A DNA stretch of 38,049 nucleotides from a virus. Lineage: Duplodnaviria; Heunggongvirae; Uroviricota; Caudoviricetes. The stretch covers positions 1 through 38,049 of IMG/VR virus record IMGVR_UViG_2802429217_000005; one strand, given 5' to 3'. Positions 27,980 through 36,410 of the stretch are shown in pieces. The position numbers and the translations under genes are program-made. The stretch's first letter is position 1. The number at the start of each line of letters is the position of its first letter. The notes beneath the pieces are model-generated. The model searched no databases, was not told the DNA's origin, and saw only the letters and a program-made list of their open reading frames with translations.

Positions 27980-28003
27980 AAAGGGGGATACCCCCCTTTA
28001 ATT
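27980..28003 (+). terminator. candidate intrinsic terminator after the plus-strand gene pair
   Basis: AAAGGGGG-ATAC-CCCCCTTT hairpin followed by an AATT-rich stretch, 3 nt after the stop at 27977. Confidence 0.45.
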
Positions 28004-28205
28004 CAGAAACTATCATGATTGAAACATTAAATATACTGGGTTTATTCTATCATCCCTGCTCTCTTGCTATATGTCCTGAAAGCGTTCTTTTAAACCTTCT
28101 GCTCAGTATGTCCGGTAATGGCACAAAGCGGACAACCACGCTAGCTCTACCCTATGCCATGAAAATGCCAATTCACATATTAATTAATGCTCTTAAATAT
28201 CATCA

Positions 28206-28625
28206 CTACAATAAATACCGAACATCTCCCTGATAAAACGACAATATGCGCTTCATAACTTCGCTTTTACGGCACTCACTACAAATTATATTATGACGCC
28301 TGTCGTAACGACGTATTTCTCCGTCTGGTAATGACCAAATAAGGTCTGGATCAACCACAACTGGTTTCTTCACCTTTGCCCTCGATAGTTTTTTGCGGGC
28401 GTTTTGCCAGTCTTTACGTGCCTGCTCAGACGGGAATAACCCGTAGCCAGAGTTGTATACGTCACCATTCGCAACCAACTCCCTGGCAAGAACACTTATC
28501 TGATATCTTGTCGCCCCCGTTTTAGTTTCCAGTTGTCGTAACGTCTCGCGCCCACTCTGGCGTACGAGATCAACGATCTGCCCTTTAATTTTTTCCCGCT
28601 CTTCCTGTGTAAATACTTTTGCCAT
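28206..28625 (-). CDS. hypothetical protein with HTH-like segment
   Basis: About 139 aa from the ATG at 28625 (GGGGAGGG Shine-Dalgarno); TGATRYQISVLARELVANG HTH-like segment and a C-terminal CSEC motif; directly downstream of the replication genes. Confidence 0.5.
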   Translation of the reverse strand: MAKVFTQEEREKIKGQIVDLVRQSGRETLRQLETKTGATRYQISVLARELVANGDVYNSGYGLFPSEQARKDWQNARKKLSRAKVKKPVVVDPDLIWSLPDGEIRRYDRRHNIICSECRKSEVMKRILSFYQGDVRYLL

Positions 28626-28641
28626 AAGCCCTCCCCAGGAA

Positions 28642-29439
28642 TCACTTTTCCGACACAATACGACTGGAGGAATCGACAATCTGTCGGACAATATCCTGGT
28701 GCTTGTTCAGCTCCCGCAGTGCGGCGCAGACTCGCTCCCACTTCTGGACATGACTTTTCGCCCGGCGCAGTTCGCGGTTTGCCATATGCAGCGATGGTAA
28801 AATCAGGCCATTGGCTCGCGTTTCAGTGAACGATGGCAACGACTGCACAATGTCCCCCACAGTATCTGTTTTAATTTCTTCCTGTGTTGCCGCTTCCTGT
28901 ACTGGTAACGTAACAACGGCTGGCTGAGAAAAGGCTTTACCAGGTGTTTTCTCTACCGATACAACTTTCGGCTCTGCTGGTAAATTTTCCCCGGTTTCTT
29001 TTACCCGCATCCACTTACACCCCTTCCCCTGTCCCAGCTTAATCACCATGCCATCGCGGCAAAGCTTTTCCATCGCAGAAACCAGCGACCTGACGCAATC
29101 AGCACGCCCCACAGCAATTGCAATCTCAGCGGTGGTCATTGCCCCACCATGAGCAAGTGTGGACAGGATGTCGCAGCGATTCAGTGGCTCACGCTCTTTT
29201 CTGCTGACCACCGGACGGGATTTTCTTTCCACTTTACACACCGTTACTTTTTTTTCTTTCACGCCCGTTTGTCGTTCTGAAACAGACCAGTAACCATTAA
29301 CCGACACAACTTCTCCCAGCTCTTCGTACTCCCTCAGCATTTTAATCGCCTCTGCAGGTTCAATGCCCAAACTGGCAGCAAGCTCGGTGCACGTCACCTT
29401 TTGCATCGCTTTTAACGTATCAATCAACGTTTCCATCAA
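28642..29439 (-). CDS. replication-module protein in the position of the helicase loader (P-like by position only)
   Basis: 265-aa ORF immediately after the initiator gene; two winged-helix-like segments; no ATPase motifs seen; not similar to lambda P from memory. Confidence 0.45.
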   Translation of the reverse strand: MMETLIDTLKAMQKVTCTELAASLGIEPAEAIKMLREYEELGEVVSVNGYWSVSERQTGVKEKKVTVCKVERKSRPVVSRKEREPLNRCDILSTLAHGGAMTTAEIAIAVGRADCVRSLVSAMEKLCRDGMVIKLGQGKGCKWMRVKETGENLPAEPKVVSVEKTPGKAFSQPAVVTLPVQEAATQEEIKTDTVGDIVQSLPSFTETRANGLILPSLHMANRELRRAKSHVQKWERVCAALRELNKHQDIVRQIVDSSSRIVSEK

Positions 29440-29481
29440 AATTTCTCCCGTTAAAAATTATTTACCAATCTCAAACAAAAC

Positions 29482-30444
29482 TTATCCCCTGAACCCTGGT
29501 GGAATTTCGGTGTCCGGTTCAGAAATGTGATTCACACAACGCTGTACAGGCGAACGCCCCAGACGGATAACCAGCTCATCCCATTTATCGCGAAGTTTTG
29601 ACGGACTCATGATGTTTTTTACCCAGAATGGATCCCGCTGTACCCGACCAAACATTTCGCAGATTTGTCTGTGAGTTCTGCCATCCAGCATCCGCATTAT
29701 GCGCACGTCATTGGCCCATGCTGTCCAGTTGGGTTCTTTCGGTCGGGTGATCTCGCCATCATCGCTGGCGGCCTGTTCGTAAAGACTCACGATTCGCCCC
29801 CAGATCCACTGTGCGCATGCCAAATCCTCCTGATTTCCCCACTGACGTTTTTTTGCACTAAACACAATCGCATCAGGATGTCGGGTTAAAAAGTCCTGTT
29901 CAGCCGTCTGCGGGTCCGGTTGCGAAGCTTCCGGACGAAAAGATCTTTTATCTGACGGATCAGGTTTTAATACTGACGGATCGGGGCCAACCATCGCCCC
30001 CATAACCGGCTGTTTTTTACCAACGGTTGATCCATCAAAATTTGACGGGTCAATCGTTGAGGGGGCAATATTTGACTGGTCAACTGTTAACGGGTCATTT
30101 TTTGCCGGGCTAATTTTTCTTTTCGGTTTATATGCCTCACGCGCCGCCTCAGCTGCTGCTTCGAGTTTTTCCACATTAAGGCGGTAGATATTGCTTTCAT
30201 TACGCCCACCGACCTTACGCTCCTCCTTCGTCAGCCAGCCGTTCTTTTCCAGTTCCGCTATCGCCGCTTTAACCGTTGATTCACTCTTTGCCCCAATCTG
30301 ACGACGAATGGTCTCCACTGCAGGCCATGACACACCTTCGTCATTGCTGTAGTCTGCAAGGCGAGCCATTACTGCCACCCTGGATAAGATCATGCCGGTG
30401 AAGGCGCACCCTTCCCAGACAAGACCATGAAGCTTGCTGCTCAT
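29482..30444 (-). CDS. replication initiator (lambda O-like organisation) containing the origin iterons
   Basis: 320-aa ORF with an N-terminal winged-helix domain and a tandem repeat array inside the coding sequence (encoding PLTVDQSNIAPSTIDPSNFDGSTVG), as in lambda O/ori. Confidence 0.65.
   Translation of the reverse strand: MSSKLHGLVWEGCAFTGMILSRVAVMARLADYSNDEGVSWPAVETIRRQIGAKSESTVKAAIAELEKNGWLTKEERKVGGRNESNIYRLNVEKLEAAAEAAREAYKPKRKISPAKNDPLTVDQSNIAPSTIDPSNFDGSTVGKKQPVMGAMVGPDPSVLKPDPSDKRSFRPEASQPDPQTAEQDFLTRHPDAIVFSAKKRQWGNQEDLACAQWIWGRIVSLYEQAASDDGEITRPKEPNWTAWANDVRIMRMLDGRTHRQICEMFGRVQRDPFWVKNIMSPSKLRDKWDELVIRLGRSPVQRCVNHISEPDTEIPPGFRG
30021..30110. repeat. candidate replication origin: three tandem ~30-bp iterons
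   Basis: CAACGGTTGA / CAATCGTTGA / CAACTGTTAA and TTGACGGGT / TTGACTGGT motifs recur with a 30-bp period, followed by an AT-rich stretch. Confidence 0.6.
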
Positions 30445-30467
30445 AAAAAACCCCGAACACCGTGCTA

Positions 30468-30893
30468 TTAGTGCATCACCACAGCATTTCCTGCCGGGCC
30501 ACCACGATTCATCTGATTGAAACCGGCGATTGCCACTGCGACAAAATCATCAGCGTCTCTCACCAGTCGTTCCCGCGTCTCCACCAACTCCCGAAAATAG
30601 ACTGAACTGTGGCTGCGCATCCGGGCCACCAGCAGAGGTGGCATTGCTTTTTCGATCGCTGGTAACAACGCCTGAATTTTTTCAACCGCATCAGTGGTGT
30701 CTTTCTCCACCCAGCGGAAAATTTTCTGGGTATTACGAGCCAGGGCTTCTGGATGGCTGTCGTCGTACAGTTCCGGGGACGTCATTCCCAGTTCGAAATA
30801 AGCCCTGGTTATCTTGGCCGCCGGAACTTTTTCACCATCCGGACGCGCCCAGGCATTCATAGCCATGCGGATGTGTTCATGCTTGATTTTCAT
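30468..30893 (-). CDS. YdaT-like protein in the cII position
   Basis: 141-aa ORF starting MKIKHEHI..., directly downstream of the Cro-like gene (ATGA overlap); resembles Rac YdaT as recalled. Confidence 0.45.
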   Translation of the reverse strand: MKIKHEHIRMAMNAWARPDGEKVPAAKITRAYFELGMTSPELYDDSHPEALARNTQKIFRWVEKDTTDAVEKIQALLPAIEKAMPPLLVARMRSHSSVYFRELVETRERLVRDADDFVAVAIAGFNQMNRGGPAGNAVVMH

Positions 30894-31117
30894 GAATCAT
30901 TCTTTCCTTCGTTCAAGGTGTTATCCTTCTTTTTGTAAAGTTCTGGGTTCAAAGATAATTTTCCCTTGGAGTATGCGGCAGCTTCCGCGGCCCTCCCCTT
31001 GGGAACTATTTCACCAGGACGTTTGCGCCACATGTATATAGCTTCACGGGTTATCCCATAAAAATCGGCAACTCTCTGAACAGAGCCAAAAAACTGGACA
31101 AGTTCATCAACTCGCAT
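30890..31117 (-). CDS. Cro/DicC-like small HTH regulator
   Basis: 75-aa ORF MRVDELVQFFGSVQRVADFYGITREAIYMWRKRPGEIVPKGRAAEAAAY... resembling DicC/YdaS-type Cro analogues; AGGAGGG Shine-Dalgarno; divergent from the repressor gene. Confidence 0.6.
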   Translation of the reverse strand: MRVDELVQFFGSVQRVADFYGITREAIYMWRKRPGEIVPKGRAAEAAAYSKGKLSLNPELYKKKDNTLNEGKNDS

Positions 31118-31209
31118 TTCACCCTCCTAAAACTAAGTATTTTTAGATTAAAGGATAATTTTTTTTAGGTCAATGCAATCTAAAATAATTTATATTCAAT
31201 TCACGGGAG
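31118..31209. promoter_or_regulatory. divergent promoter/operator region between the cro-like and repressor genes
   Basis: 92-bp AT-rich spacer with dyads CTAAAACTAAGTATTTTTAG (31127-31146) and TTTTAG-N11-CTAAAA (31163-31185); candidate leftward -35 TTGACC / -10 TAATCT and rightward -10 TATATT. Confidence 0.5.
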
Positions 31210-31860
31210 ATGATGATGGAAAGCCTTGGCATTAGGCTTAAGAGACTCAGAAAAGACAAGGGACTGACCCAAGTCGAACTGGGCAAGCTTTCTGGCGTAA
31301 CAGGGGTAACTATAGGGTACTGGGAGAAAGACCTAAACGAACCCGGTAGCAAAGCTCTTAGTAAATTAGCCCAAGCACTAGGAACTACTGAGTCCTATCT
31401 CCTATATGGAGTATCGTCTACTGAACCTACCCTTGTGCAGAACAATTCAGGCACCCAAATCCCCTATCTTTCATGGGGGGAAGCAATTTCTTTCCTAATT
31501 TTAGAAGGAGAGAAAACTATGGGAAATGCCGACAGAATCACCACATTCTTTGACGTCAAGGAGGGGGATTTTGCCGTTTCAATGCCTGATGACACTATGC
31601 ACAACCCATCAGGGTCGCCAAGCATTCCGGTTGGTGCCACAGTGATCATGAGGCCTAGAGAAAAATATAAAAATGGTAGTATCGTCGCTGTAATAGTCCC
31701 AGATCCGCTTACAAACGAACCATCTATGACTATAAAAAAATTAGTCATCGACGGAAAACTCGTGTATTTAAGCCCCCTCAATCCTCGCTATCAATCGTCC
31801 TTACTGACACCTGAATGTAAAATTGTTGCTGTAGCAAAAGGTGTGCAGTTCAGCCTATAG
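31210..31860 (+). CDS. CI-like prophage repressor (HTH-XRE N-terminus, S24 LexA-type peptidase C-terminus)
   Basis: 216-aa ORF; N-terminal LKRLRKDKGLTQVELGKLSGVTGVTIGYWE HTH; C-terminal FAVSMPDDTM ... IVAVIV ... MTIKKLV consistent with an S24 Ser/Lys autoprotease; GGGAGA Shine-Dalgarno. Confidence 0.85.
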   Translation: MMMESLGIRLKRLRKDKGLTQVELGKLSGVTGVTIGYWEKDLNEPGSKALSKLAQALGTTESYLLYGVSSTEPTLVQNNSGTQIPYLSWGEAISFLILEGEKTMGNADRITTFFDVKEGDFAVSMPDDTMHNPSGSPSIPVGATVIMRPREKYKNGSIVAVIVPDPLTNEPSMTIKKLVIDGKLVYLSPLNPRYQSSLLTPECKIVAVAKGVQFSL

Positions 31861-31883
31861 CTTCCACTTTGTTTTTCAATCAG

Positions 31884-31908
31884 AGGTCGGCTTTGTCGAC
31901 CTTTTTTT
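31884..31908 (+). terminator. candidate intrinsic terminator after the repressor gene
   Basis: AGGTCG-GCTTTGT-CGACCT hairpin followed by TTTTTTT. Confidence 0.6.
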
Positions 31909-31930
31909 AAATATATCTAGATCACACTTG

Positions 31931-31962
31931 ACTATAAAACTAAATAGATTTAGTTTTATAGT
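31931..31962. repeat. 32-bp palindrome with 15-bp perfect arms (candidate operator)
   Basis: ACTATAAAACTAAAT-AG-ATTTAGTTTTATAGT; arms perfectly complementary apart from the central dinucleotide; overlaps a TTGACT hexamer. Confidence 0.45.
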
Positions 31963-32056
31963 ATACCACCCCACCCCGCCCCACAGAACGCAGGGCAATA
32001 CTTCGAGTTACCAGGCAGTGGTCTGGGGTTAAGTAGCCAGCCCGAGGCGTAAGAAC

Positions 32057-33935: not shown

Positions 33936-36410
33936 ATGAGTAAAGTCTTTATTTGCGCCGCCATTCCTGACGAACAGGCAATTACGGAAGAAGGTGCAGT
34001 TGCTGTAGCCACTGCCATCGAAGCTGGTGACGAACGCCGCGCCCGTGCCAAATTTACCTGGCAATTCCTGGAGCAATATCCGGCTGCTCAGGACTGTGCT
34101 TATAAATTTCTTGTCTGCGAGGATAAACCCGGCATGGCCCGCCCTGCCCTTGGTTCCTGGGATACCGAATATATGCAGGAAAACCGCTGGGATGAGGGAT
34201 CGTCTTCCTTTGTCCCGGTCGAACCAGAGCCGAATACAGAAATTGTTAACTTTAATCAGTTATCCGACGACAAACAGGCCGCTGTTCTCGTTAAGTTTGG
34301 CGCACATGAAAACGTCACCGTGGATATGGTCATCAACGCAAGCGGGCTTCTTGGCGATGACGACATGATGACCTTTGACGGACACCTCGCAGAGGCAATT
34401 ATCCGGACTAAAGAAATTAACGCCATGTATCCGGAACGTCAGATTGAATACATCAACGATGCCAGACGTGATTTAAAACCAACCGCCAAATGGCCCGACG
34501 TTCAGGCATATTTTCTCGACCGTAAAAAACGCCAGGAAAAGGAGCGCAAAGAAGGTGGTGCATATACTTCTGTTGTTGATCTCGCCCGCGCCAGCGTCAA
34601 CCGGCAGAACACTGAAAACTCAGTAGCAAAAATCAACCCTGTCACTACTGCCATTCGTCGCGAATACAAGCAGACATGGAAAACACTGGATGATGAACTG
34701 GCCTACGCTCTGTGGCCTGGTGACATTGATGCCGGAAACATTGACGGCAGCATCCATCGCTGGGCAAAAAATGAAGTTATCGACAACGACCGCGAAGACT
34801 GGAAGCGTATCTCGGCATCAATGCGCAAACAACCTGATGCCCTTCGCTACGACCGCCAGACTATTTTTGGCCTTGTCCGTGAACGTCCGATCGACATTCA
34901 CAAAGACCCTGTGGCACTGAACAAATACATTACTGAATACCTGACTACAAAGGGCGTGTTTGAAGATGAAGGAAGAAATCAGAGCGCAACTGATACTCTC
35001 TCGTCGCCAGTACCAGAAACTGATGCAGTGGAAACGGCAATTCCGGACAACGAAAAAACCGAATGCAAAGTGGAAGTCGAACCATCTGTAGAGCGTGAGG
35101 GGCCGTTCTACTTCCTCTTCACCGACAAGGATGGCGAAAAATACGGTCGCGCAAACAAACTTTCTGGTCTGGATAAGGCACTGGCTGCCGGGGCTACTGA
35201 AATCACGAAAGAAGAATATTTCGCCCGCAAAAACGGTACATACTCAGGTTCACAACAAAATACTGGTGCATCTGATACGACCGCACAACCAGGGCCGGTA
35301 AAAGTTACCGCTGACGAAGTAAACAAAATTATGCAGGCAGCCAATATCAGCCAGCCTGACGCCGATGAACTGCTTGCAGTATCACGCGGTGAATTTGTTG
35401 CAGGGATTAGCGATCCGAATGATCCGAAATGGGTAAAGGGGATTGAAACCCGCGATTCTGTGAACCAGAACCAGCAAGAAACGGAACAGAACGATCAGAA
35501 AGCGGAACAAAACAGCCCAAATACGCAACAAAACGAGCCAGAAACGAAACAACCTGAACCAGTAGTGCAACAGGAACCGAAAAAGATCTGCACCGCCTGC
35601 GGTCAGAGCGGTGGCGGCAACTGCCATGATTGTGGTGCGCTGATGGGCGACGCAACATACCAGGAAACATTCGATGACAAGAACCAGGTTGAAGTTCAGG
35701 AAGACGATTCGGAGAAAATGGAAGGCGCTGAACATCCACACAAGGGGAATGCTGGCAGCGCTCAGGACCACGCCAGCGATAGTGAAACTGGCGAGAGGGC
35801 AGATCCCTTAATTACGGTGAACGGTCATCACGTTATCACATCCACCAGCAGGACGTGTGACCATCTAATGATCGACCTTGAAACCATGGGAAAAAATCCT
35901 GATGCCCCGATCATCTCAATAGGTGCAATATTTTTCGATCCGCAAACCGGAGATATGGGACCGGAATTTAGTAAGACTATCGATCTGGAAACTGCTGGCG
36001 GAGTCATTGATCGGGACACCATTAAATGGTGGCTTAAGCAATCACGCGAAGCGCAATCTGCCATTATGACCGATGAAATCCCGTTAGATGATGCACTGTT
36101 ACAATTGCGGGAATTTATCGACGAAAACTCCGGTGAATTTTTTGTTCAGGTTTGGGGAAATGGAGCCAACTTCGACAACACGATTTTGCGCCGTTCATAC
36201 GAACGGCAGGGGATCCCCTGCCCGTGGCGTTACTACAACGATCGCGATGTACGCACAATCGTTGAGCTGGGGAAAGCCATAGACTTCGATGCCAGAACGG
36301 CTATTCCATTCGAAGGTGAGCGCCATAATGCACTTGATGACGCCCGTTACCAGGCAAAATACGTTTCAGTTATCTGGCAAAAACTTATCCCGAGTCAGGC
36401 TGATTCTTAA
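33936..36410 (+). CDS. RecE-like exonuclease: large N-terminal region plus C-terminal DEDDh (DnaQ-like) 3'-5' exonuclease domain
   Basis: 824-aa ORF; central block LLAVSRGEFVAGISDPNDPKWVKGIETRD resembles RecE; C-terminus has LMIDLETMG, WGNGANFDNTIL and HNALDDARY (DEDDh-like); Cys cluster CTACGQSGGGNCHDCG. Confidence 0.7.
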   Translation: MSKVFICAAIPDEQAITEEGAVAVATAIEAGDERRARAKFTWQFLEQYPAAQDCAYKFLVCEDKPGMARPALGSWDTEYMQENRWDEGSSSFVPVEPEPNTEIVNFNQLSDDKQAAVLVKFGAHENVTVDMVINASGLLGDDDMMTFDGHLAEAIIRTKEINAMYPERQIEYINDARRDLKPTAKWPDVQAYFLDRKKRQEKERKEGGAYTSVVDLARASVNRQNTENSVAKINPVTTAIRREYKQTWKTLDDELAYALWPGDIDAGNIDGSIHRWAKNEVIDNDREDWKRISASMRKQPDALRYDRQTIFGLVRERPIDIHKDPVALNKYITEYLTTKGVFEDEGRNQSATDTLSSPVPETDAVETAIPDNEKTECKVEVEPSVEREGPFYFLFTDKDGEKYGRANKLSGLDKALAAGATEITKEEYFARKNGTYSGSQQNTGASDTTAQPGPVKVTADEVNKIMQAANISQPDADELLAVSRGEFVAGISDPNDPKWVKGIETRDSVNQNQQETEQNDQKAEQNSPNTQQNEPETKQPEPVVQQEPKKICTACGQSGGGNCHDCGALMGDATYQETFDDKNQVEVQEDDSEKMEGAEHPHKGNAGSAQDHASDSETGERADPLITVNGHHVITSTSRTCDHLMIDLETMGKNPDAPIISIGAIFFDPQTGDMGPEFSKTIDLETAGGVIDRDTIKWWLKQSREAQSAIMTDEIPLDDALLQLREFIDENSGEFFVQVWGNGANFDNTILRRSYERQGIPCPWRYYNDRDVRTIVELGKAIDFDARTAIPFEGERHNALDDARYQAKYVSVIWQKLIPSQADS

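Follow-up and report, generated by a model that had tools for sequence, protein, structure and literature searches.

Does the short tandem repeat in the middle of a phage replication initiator gene serve the protein that it encodes, or the DNA in which it is written? The question is raised by a 38,049-nucleotide DNA of a Caudoviricetes virus (IMG/VR record IMGVR_UViG_2802429217_000005, positions 1 to 38,049; the whole of this stretch is called the window below), which carries an open reading frame (ORF) for a 320-aa initiator in the early-right operon of an Escherichia coli lambdoid prophage. A preliminary description, made from the letters alone, had placed an iteron-type origin inside this gene. 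According to our analysis, the repeats, which have a period of 15 bp, are likely to be the iterons of a prophage replication origin that lies, as in lambda, in that part of its own initiator gene which encodes the linker. DNA-level conservation, covariation of the sites with the subtype of the DNA-binding domain, inheritance of both as one module and a lambda-like layout support this reading, under which the initiator would bind the repeats and replication would start there.

Repeat array within the initiator gene

The gene, which lies on the minus strand, and its array are located as follows.

29482–30444, minus strand: initiator gene (ORF of 320 aa), early-right operon, after CI, Cro and a YdaT-like gene at the cII position
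30020–30109: putative iteron array, six in-frame 15-bp units that encode a pentapeptide repeat and contain palindromes
30020, plus strand: unit CCAACGGTTGATCCA
30035, plus strand: unit TCAAAATTTGACGGG
30050, plus strand: unit TCAATCGTTGAGGGG
30065, plus strand: unit GCAATATTTGACTGG
30080, plus strand: unit TCAACTGTTAACGGG
30095, plus strand: unit TCATTTTTTGCCGGG
from 30110, plus strand: degenerate seventh unit

Tandem Repeats Finder, one of the checks suggested in the preliminary description, reported a repeat at 30035–30109 with a period of 15, 5.0 copies, 66% matches and a score of 59, and a repeat search gave five copies at an exact spacing of 15 bp, starting from 30021. The self-match at lag 15 reached 48 of 75 positions over 30027–30116 (window mean 20.0, standard deviation 4.2, z 6.7), and none of 200 dinucleotide shuffles attained this value (maximum 40). 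Because of these lag-15 and repeat-search results, the base period is 15 bp, or five codons. At lag 30, the self-match at 30020 (41 of 60) was the highest in the window, so that the three tandem units of about 30 bp originally described do correspond to a real super-period, although a secondary one, and the base unit is shorter.

On the coding (minus) strand the unit consists of five codons, nTT GAC CCG TCA Ann, and the array, which occupies codons 112–141 of 320 and thus indeed the middle of the gene, encodes the peptide SPAKN / DPLTV / DQSNI / APSTI / DPSNF / DGSTV. An 11-bp palindrome, TCAA-NNN-TTGA, is found in the units at 30020, 30035, 30050, 30065 and 30080 (two perfect copies and three with one mismatch); the sixth unit, at 30095, has two mismatches to it. 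The recurring motifs first noticed here, CAACNGTTNA and TTGACNGGT, are both present, as parts of alternating half-sites (...TTGAC-nn-GTCAA-nnn-TTGA...). Over the whole window, matches to TCAANNNTTGA with at most one mismatch are not enriched (19 found against 21 expected); five of the 19 are spaced exactly 15 bp apart at 30020–30090, and the signal is therefore a phased cluster and not a count. By the boundaries of the AlphaFold2 model, the five to six dyad-symmetric sites (30020–30105) lie inside the initiator ORF between its two domains, in a disordered segment (residues 109–202, predicted local distance difference test score, pLDDT, below 50), in agreement with the earlier view that the repeats encode a repetitive linker.

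A lone iteron-like site, TTAACCGTTGA, with one mismatch, was observed at 30269–30279 in the region coding for the winged helix, about 180 bp from the array; it was paired with the first array unit in the repeat search and may be due to chance. As for DnaA boxes, one relaxed match, TTTTCCACA, at 30167–30175, 57 bp from the array, was considered and rejected: the window holds four such matches versus 3.7 by chance, and this one is absent from the SfIV-type sequence inspected.

DNA-level constraint and inheritance with the binding domain

The gene was compared with 80 loci from different Enterobacterales species, 80 close E. coli viral contigs, and the phages SfIV, SfII, a Klebsiella phage and phiP27; codons were counted in 81 relatives, no two of them identical, which represent many enterobacterial genera. 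In nearly all relatives with a readable linker, a repeat array directly follows the winged-helix domain. The units of this array nearly always recur every 15 bp; a few relatives have 33-bp repeats or just one recognisable unit. Two invariant "DP(S/Q)" boxes come after the array in these relatives. The preliminary description had named a lack of DNA-level conservation among homologous initiator genes as the result that would speak against it, but the DNA turned out to be conserved more strictly than the protein.

The serine of the repeat is encoded by TCA in 302 of 353 cases (86%), and this codon is in the majority in each of the 75 arrays. The second serine of the linker is encoded by TCT in 353 of 563 cases. 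In the same genes outside the linker, by contrast, the shares of TCA and TCT among serine codons are 25% and 11%. In the subfamily to which the window belongs (Edwardsiella, Erwinia, Mixta and E. coli), serine, proline and leucine replace one another while the DNA keeps the pattern YYA-A (TCA AAT, CCA ACG, CCA AAT, TTA ACG). Together, the conserved bases make up a palindrome that runs across codon boundaries: TCA[A/G]A-N-T[C/T]TGA in most relatives, extended as far as CCTCCAGAATCTGGAGG in one branch. Between palindromes, a 4-bp spacer is the variable part.

The non-tandem boxes are located as follows, together with the spacer that separates them from the array and the zone that encloses all these parts.

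29973–29982, minus strand: GATC box 1, GATCCGTCAG, encoding D-P-S-V
29952–29961, minus strand: GATC box 2, GATCCGTCAG, 21 bp from box 1
29983–30019: spacer from the array to the GATC boxes, third-position diversity 0.019 though positions 1 and 2 vary
29941–30132: zone of suppressed synonymous variation, codons ~105–168, from per-codon diversity in 50 E. coli alleles

Among 77 diverse relatives, the codons of box 1 are GAT in 77, CCG in 73, TCA in 63 of 63 serines and GTA in 72 of 74 valines, and the glycine codons just upstream of it are unconstrained (GGC 36, GGG 25, GGT 6, GGA 5). In box 2, GAT is used for 70 of 70 aspartates, CCA in 64 of 76 and TCA for 61 of 61 serines. The two boxes are spaced by 24 bp in 68 of 77 relatives. 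GATC occurs at 29942, 29958 and 29979 in the window, and the aspartate codon of the boxes is GAT and never GAC.

Within E. coli, 50 distinct alleles show a third-position diversity of 0.126 for the N-domain and 0.176 for the C-domain; the corresponding values for the array, the spacer and the boxes are 0.032, 0.019 and 0.008. The second-position diversity of the array, in turn, is 0.047 versus 0.011 in the N-domain, and in the spacer both first- and second-position diversity exceed those of the N-domain. A shallow genealogy is therefore not the cause of the low third-position diversity, since the first and second positions of the array and spacer are more diverse. From the extent of this suppression we infer that the cis-acting element spans 29941–30132. 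The spacer also holds a decayed proximal site at about 29985–29999 (GCGATGGTTGG on the coding strand), and at the matching place Edwardsiella has a perfect palindrome, GGGTCAATGGTTGACCC.

Overall, these data indicate that the constraint lies on the DNA and not on the peptide. Concerted evolution of tandem units would be insufficient to account for it, because the codons of the non-tandem boxes are frozen as well; selection on the bases themselves is suggested by the serine codons, the amino acid changes that keep the DNA, the frozen boxes, the diversity within E. coli and the codon-straddling palindrome taken together.

The type of palindrome covaries with the subtype of the winged helix. Genes of subtype A[KR]S (n = 9, the window's gene among them) have on average 5.9 TCAANNNTTGA sites per linker and lack TCARAATCTGA, those of subtype AG (n = 69) have 4.3 TCARAATCTGA and 1.1 CCAGAATCTGG sites per linker, and the two "LA" genes have only CCAGAATCTGG. 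The dominant spacing of these sites in the linkers is 15 bp. Outside the linker, TCARAATCTGA and CCAGAATCTGG are essentially absent and TCAANNNTTGA is found at a background level of 0.2–0.5 per gene.

The N-domain, the array and the boxes are inherited as one module, and the C-terminal domains to which this module is joined are of at least four unrelated kinds. Conversely, the C-terminal half of the window's gene has 83–97% DNA identity to initiators with another N-module, those of phage HannyBb and E. coli KW21. Along the HannyBb initiator (positions 1501–2466 of locus L006), the identity to the window jumps from about 45% to 83–97% at about 29952, and the module junction is thus placed at about 29950, directly after GATC box 2. 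The linker of the HannyBb and KW21 N-module carries five repeats of the GGTCAAAATG type and, after these, A+T-rich repeats of TACAGAGAAT, and it looks like a second, distinct in-gene origin. An origin that travels with its cognate binding domain, as these sequences suggest, is the classical lambdoid pattern. By synonymous freezing, covariation and co-inheritance, the sites are DNA-constrained and cognate-specific.

Candidate unwinding element, origin reading and alternatives

The preliminary description had noted an AT-rich stretch adjoining the repeats. Such a stretch exists as the T-rich flank upstream of the array, but its A+T richness is modest, and a better candidate for unwinding is found downstream of the array.

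30110–30133: T-rich flank with the degenerate seventh unit, upstream of the array in gene orientation
29937–29976: candidate element for DNA unwinding, with the lowest duplex stability of any 40-mer in the gene, complete GATC sites at 29942 and 29958, and the GATC of box 1 (29979) just outside

No strong A+T richness was found beside the repeats in 40-bp windows within the gene (minimum GC 0.375, at 30100–30139), and duplex stability was used in place of A+T content for this reason. The nearest-neighbour free energy of 29937–29976 is −46.6, against a gene mean of −56.0 (standard deviation 3.1), with 68% A+T. The 40-mer at 30094–30133 in the T-rich flank (nucleotides 312–351 of the gene) has an A+T content of 68% as well and ranks third in instability within the gene. 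Among 77 diverse relatives, the box segment contains the least stable 40-mer in 66 (mean z 2.9) and two to three GATC sites in 70. An easily melted region that bears conserved GATC sites is thus present downstream of the array, although it is weaker than that of lambda. The GATC-box segment is proposed as a candidate unwinding element because it holds the least stable 40-mer here and in relatives, bears GATC and has a lambda-like relative position.

In oriC and P1, firing is sensitive to Dam and SeqA because the unwinding element contains GATC sites. Given this knowledge and the invariance of the GATC sites, we put forward the hypothesis that the firing of the putative origin may be under Dam/SeqA control. 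No gene for a DNA adenine methyltransferase was found near the initiator gene in the window. Downstream of the initiator genes of related loci (L002, L005, L006 and L008), dam-type genes occur a few genes past some of the replication modules (dam in SfII and a Dam-family gene in Klebsiella phage phi6.3), and HannyBb has a gene annotated only as "DNA methyltransferase" in the corresponding region.

According to the mechanism that we propose, dimers of the N-terminal winged-helix domain would bind the 11-bp palindromes TCAA-NNN-TTGA. Packing at 15 bp corresponds to about 1.4 helical turns and would place neighbouring dimers on roughly opposite faces of the DNA, which may underlie the 30-bp super-period. 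The resulting nucleoprotein array would destabilise the adjoining low-stability segment with its two invariant GATC boxes (29937–29982), and the lambda-O-like C-terminal domain, possibly with a DnaT-like tail, would recruit the host helicase machinery. We infer binding, melting, helicase recruitment and firing from this arrangement. The same arrays are present in the inducible or isolated phages SfIV, SfII and phiP27.

The strongest alternative is autoregulation of the early-right operon by the initiator or another winged-helix protein, with the array as operator or roadblock; the array might instead be a centromere-like or other protein-loading site, and the true origin would be elsewhere, for example at 29440–29479. 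Such close packing of short palindromes is also typical of operators and plasmid centromeres, and both the DNA-level constraint and the covariation are explained equally well in this way; in addition, the local 40-mer with the lowest GC (0.25) is the intergenic segment 29440–29479, beside a 12-bp repeat at 29414–29439. However, the placement of the array between the domains of a lambda-O-related initiator, which fits the lambdoid origin pattern, would be left unexplained, as would the conserved low-stability GATC flank and the module boundaries. Partition genes are not found nearby, and a scan of 29300–31300 on both strands for promoters and terminators revealed no promoter-like site, despite the TTGAC hexamers in the array, so that an internal or antisense promoter is unsupported. 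We therefore consider this alternative unlikely.

A purely protein-level explanation is less probable still. In this case, the array would encode a low-complexity pentapeptide linker (D-P-S-x-x) produced by slippage, with no cis role, and its codons would reflect recent duplication and concerted evolution. The disorder of the linker in the AlphaFold2 model and the recurrence of a DPS-like peptide motif across the initiator family agree with this, and copy number shifts by whole 15-bp units among close alleles, which shows slippage or unequal exchange. Against it stand the retention of the TCA majority codon in all 75 arrays across many genera, and boxes that are frozen in the same way without being tandem (GAT 77/77, GTA 72/74, with CCG in box 1 and CCA in box 2) while the adjacent glycine codons vary. 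Furthermore, the base pattern persists through amino acid replacements (S/P/L/Q), and within E. coli the non-synonymous diversity equals or exceeds the synonymous diversity in the array–box zone only.

A constraint that stems from the folding of the mRNA, from an antisense RNA or from a hidden overlapping ORF is very improbable: the palindromes could form hairpins and a 40-aa out-of-frame ORF (30087–30209, minus strand) overlaps the upstream end of the array, but the conserved unit is a short dyad at fixed spacing that covaries with a DNA-binding domain, Rfam (28000–32000, E ≤ 1) gave no match within the initiator gene, the promoter scan was negative on both strands, and no other-frame ORF spans 29941–30132.

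Several points weigh against an origin. The sampled sequences are phylogenetically related, and the counts overstate their independence; the candidate unwinding segment has only 68% A+T, compared to 78% in lambda; and at a packing of 15 bp, versus about 20–24 bp in lambda, an O-some-like wrap would not be assured. Copy number is loose, with four to six sites in E. coli alleles and down to one recognisable unit in some relatives. The array and the proximal site of the window are somewhat more degenerate than in close relatives, and because of this the window's copy may belong to a decaying prophage. In the searchable literature, no experimental report of binding or origin activity was found for this initiator family. 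A paper on the O protein of a phage "P27" was considered as experimental support and set aside, as that P27 has lambda-type iterons and differs from the HTH_36-bearing phiP27 (AJ298298).

If the repeats are origin iterons, they would confine the origin to a 190-bp segment with an explicit site consensus and would thus provide a testable map for replication, relevant to toxin-gene amplification in non-lambda-type Shiga toxin (Stx) phages and in serotype-converting phages. The gene would also be a natural example of a DNA-binding code that overrides the protein code within an ORF, and the GATC boxes and the DnaT-like tail would point to host dependencies, on Dam/SeqA and on the primosome. A broader proposal is made only tentatively and is rather doubtful: that this is an undescribed, widespread class of enterobacterial prophage origins, with close-packed in-frame 11-bp palindromic iterons, Dam (GATC)-gated firing and a DnaT-like tail that hijacks the restart primosome or DnaB–DnaC. 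Such a hijack would account for the many members that lack a helicase loader gene. The initiator type itself is common, with a match in 2899 of 5426 complete E. coli genomes (near-full-length in 1515), and is also present in SfII, SfIV and the Stx2e phage phiP27.

Initiator protein, known systems and prophage setting

The initiator protein consists of the following parts.

30133–30444, minus strand: N-terminal winged-helix DNA-binding domain, aa 1–104 (AlphaFold2 pLDDT 72–88)
29566–29949, minus strand: lambda-O-like C-terminal domain, aa 166–293 (BLASTP against lambda O aa 155–270, 37% identity, E 2e-26)
29485–29544, minus strand: DnaT-like C-terminal tail, aa 301–320 (…SEPDTEIPPGFRG; phmmer against DnaT chains of the PDB)

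The sole Pfam match of the 320-aa protein is HTH_36 (PF13730; aa 25–71, E 6e-8), which at 32.7 bits exceeds the curated cut-off of 25. In the AlphaFold2 model, built with 20 homologues, the N-domain has helices at 3–16, 20–31, 43–50 and 55–67, a beta hairpin at 71–89 and a helix at 91–104, and in Foldseek searches it matched dimeric winged-helix regulators of the MarR/PadR/ArsR/Fur type. The C-terminal domain is helical at aa 205–295. The full-length protein matches PHROG phrog_391, "replication initiation O-like" (E 7e-112), and its relatives in phage records are annotated as "replication protein O" or "primosomal protein". The N-terminus has no BLASTP similarity to lambda O and no match to NCBIfam phage_O_Nterm at E ≤ 0.01, while lambda O matches that family at 5e-39; the Phage_rep_O/TIGR01610-type N-terminal domain of the lambda O family is thus absent. 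By sequence, the "O-like" label of the preliminary description is right for the C-terminal half only. The homologous domain of lambda O is its P-interacting half.

The tail QRCVNHISEPDTEIPPGFRG, searched alone with phmmer, resembles the extreme C-terminus of host DnaT (2ru8_A, 6aep_A and 9zbt_D, E 2.5e-4 to 6e-4), and its P-x-GFRG motif is retained in relatives whose C-terminal domains are unrelated. This similarity is probably the source of the "primosomal protein I" annotations, and it suggests mimicry of DnaT by the initiator tail. Removal of residues 154–179 of DnaT weakens its cooperative binding to single-stranded DNA, as reported in one of two papers (PMC4132743, PMC13377028), neither of which establishes a role for its extreme C-terminal tail.

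The arrangement is most similar to ori-lambda, as had been suggested at the outset, and to the 933W-type origins of Stx phages. In both cases dyad-symmetric iterons lie in the initiator gene at the boundary of the N- and C-terminal domains (codons 117–144 in lambda, 112–141 here), the iteron-coded peptide is a linker, the C-terminal domains are homologous, and the least stable 40-mer of the gene follows the iterons (nucleotides 437–476 of lambda O, just past iteron 4). Iteron number is variable among relatives in both, with four in lambda and six in Stx phages (PMC7466680). The differences concern the N-terminal DNA-binding domain, which is HTH_36 here and not of the lambda O N-terminal family, and the sites, which are 11 bp per 15 bp here and 18–19 bp per about 20–24 bp in lambda. 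The unwinding candidate is less A+T-rich than that of lambda and has two invariant GATC sites, and the initiator, which has the DnaT-like tail, is followed by DUF1627 and DUF977 genes instead of a P homologue.

In-gene iterons have precedents in lambda, P22 and L (PMC8022706; PMC7466680). In phage L, an 11-bp repeat present six times in gene 18 led Casjens and colleagues to infer an origin (PMC8022706); gene 18 of L and P22 resembles the present case in that short imprecise in-gene repeats were proposed as an origin by sequence alone, but the repeat sequences are unlike those of the window. Iteron plasmids (RepA, pi, RepE), P1 oriR and the 13-mers of oriC share the principle of initiator-binding repeat arrays beside an unwinding element. 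However, the iterons of plasmids lie outside the rep gene and are direct repeats of about 17–22 bp, to which Rep monomers with two winged-helix domains bind, whereas here 11-bp palindromes lie in the gene of a protein with a single winged-helix domain, for which Pfam gave no match to a plasmid Rep family (Rep_3-type). The "Eru8/Eru11" regions of Stx phages likewise have genes for an HTH_36 protein and a YdaT-family protein next to cI (PMC8951638); papers on the Eru replication types describe these modules as proteins and do not mention iterons or an origin (PMC8951638, PMC8044961). The searchable literature contained no description of these motifs or of the origins of SfV/SfII-type or Eru-type phages. 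The arrangement is thus familiar, and it seems to be undescribed for this widespread initiator family.

The neighbouring genes of the early region are as follows.

31210–31860, plus strand: LexA-like CI
30890–31117, minus strand: Cro
30468–30893, minus strand: YdaT-family gene at the cII position
28642–29439, minus strand: DUF1627 gene, downstream of the initiator
28206–28691, minus strand: DUF977 gene, Ren-like, downstream of the initiator

No lambda-P-type helicase loader is encoded directly downstream of the initiator; DUF1627 takes the position of P and the Ren-like DUF977 that of ren. In relatives, the downstream position is occupied by a DnaC-like ATPase (E. coli C325; L18 of phiP27, with the helicase L19) or by nothing. 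The initiator gene has a 100% match to the chromosome of E. coli D217-5, where it is annotated as "helix-turn-helix domain-containing protein". Genes characteristic of defective prophages like Qin and Rac, namely hokD, dicB and those for DUF1391 and DUF1482, are present in the D217-5 neighbourhood. Because of these neighbours the window's copy may be a decaying element, and since its prophage has no obvious helicase loader it may not be active.

Two further repeats were observed in the window. A 12-bp tandem repeat, AACGTATCAATC (2.2 copies, 29414–29439), lies at the start of the DUF1627 gene and abuts the lowest-GC stretch of the region (0.25, 29440–29479), which separates the stop codon of the initiator from the following gene. 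The strongest periodic signal of the window is a period-21 tandem repeat, GAAACAAAACGAGCCAGAAAC (35462–35552, 4.3 copies, score 73), inside an 824-aa ORF (33936–36410) annotated as "exonuclease" in the matching genome.

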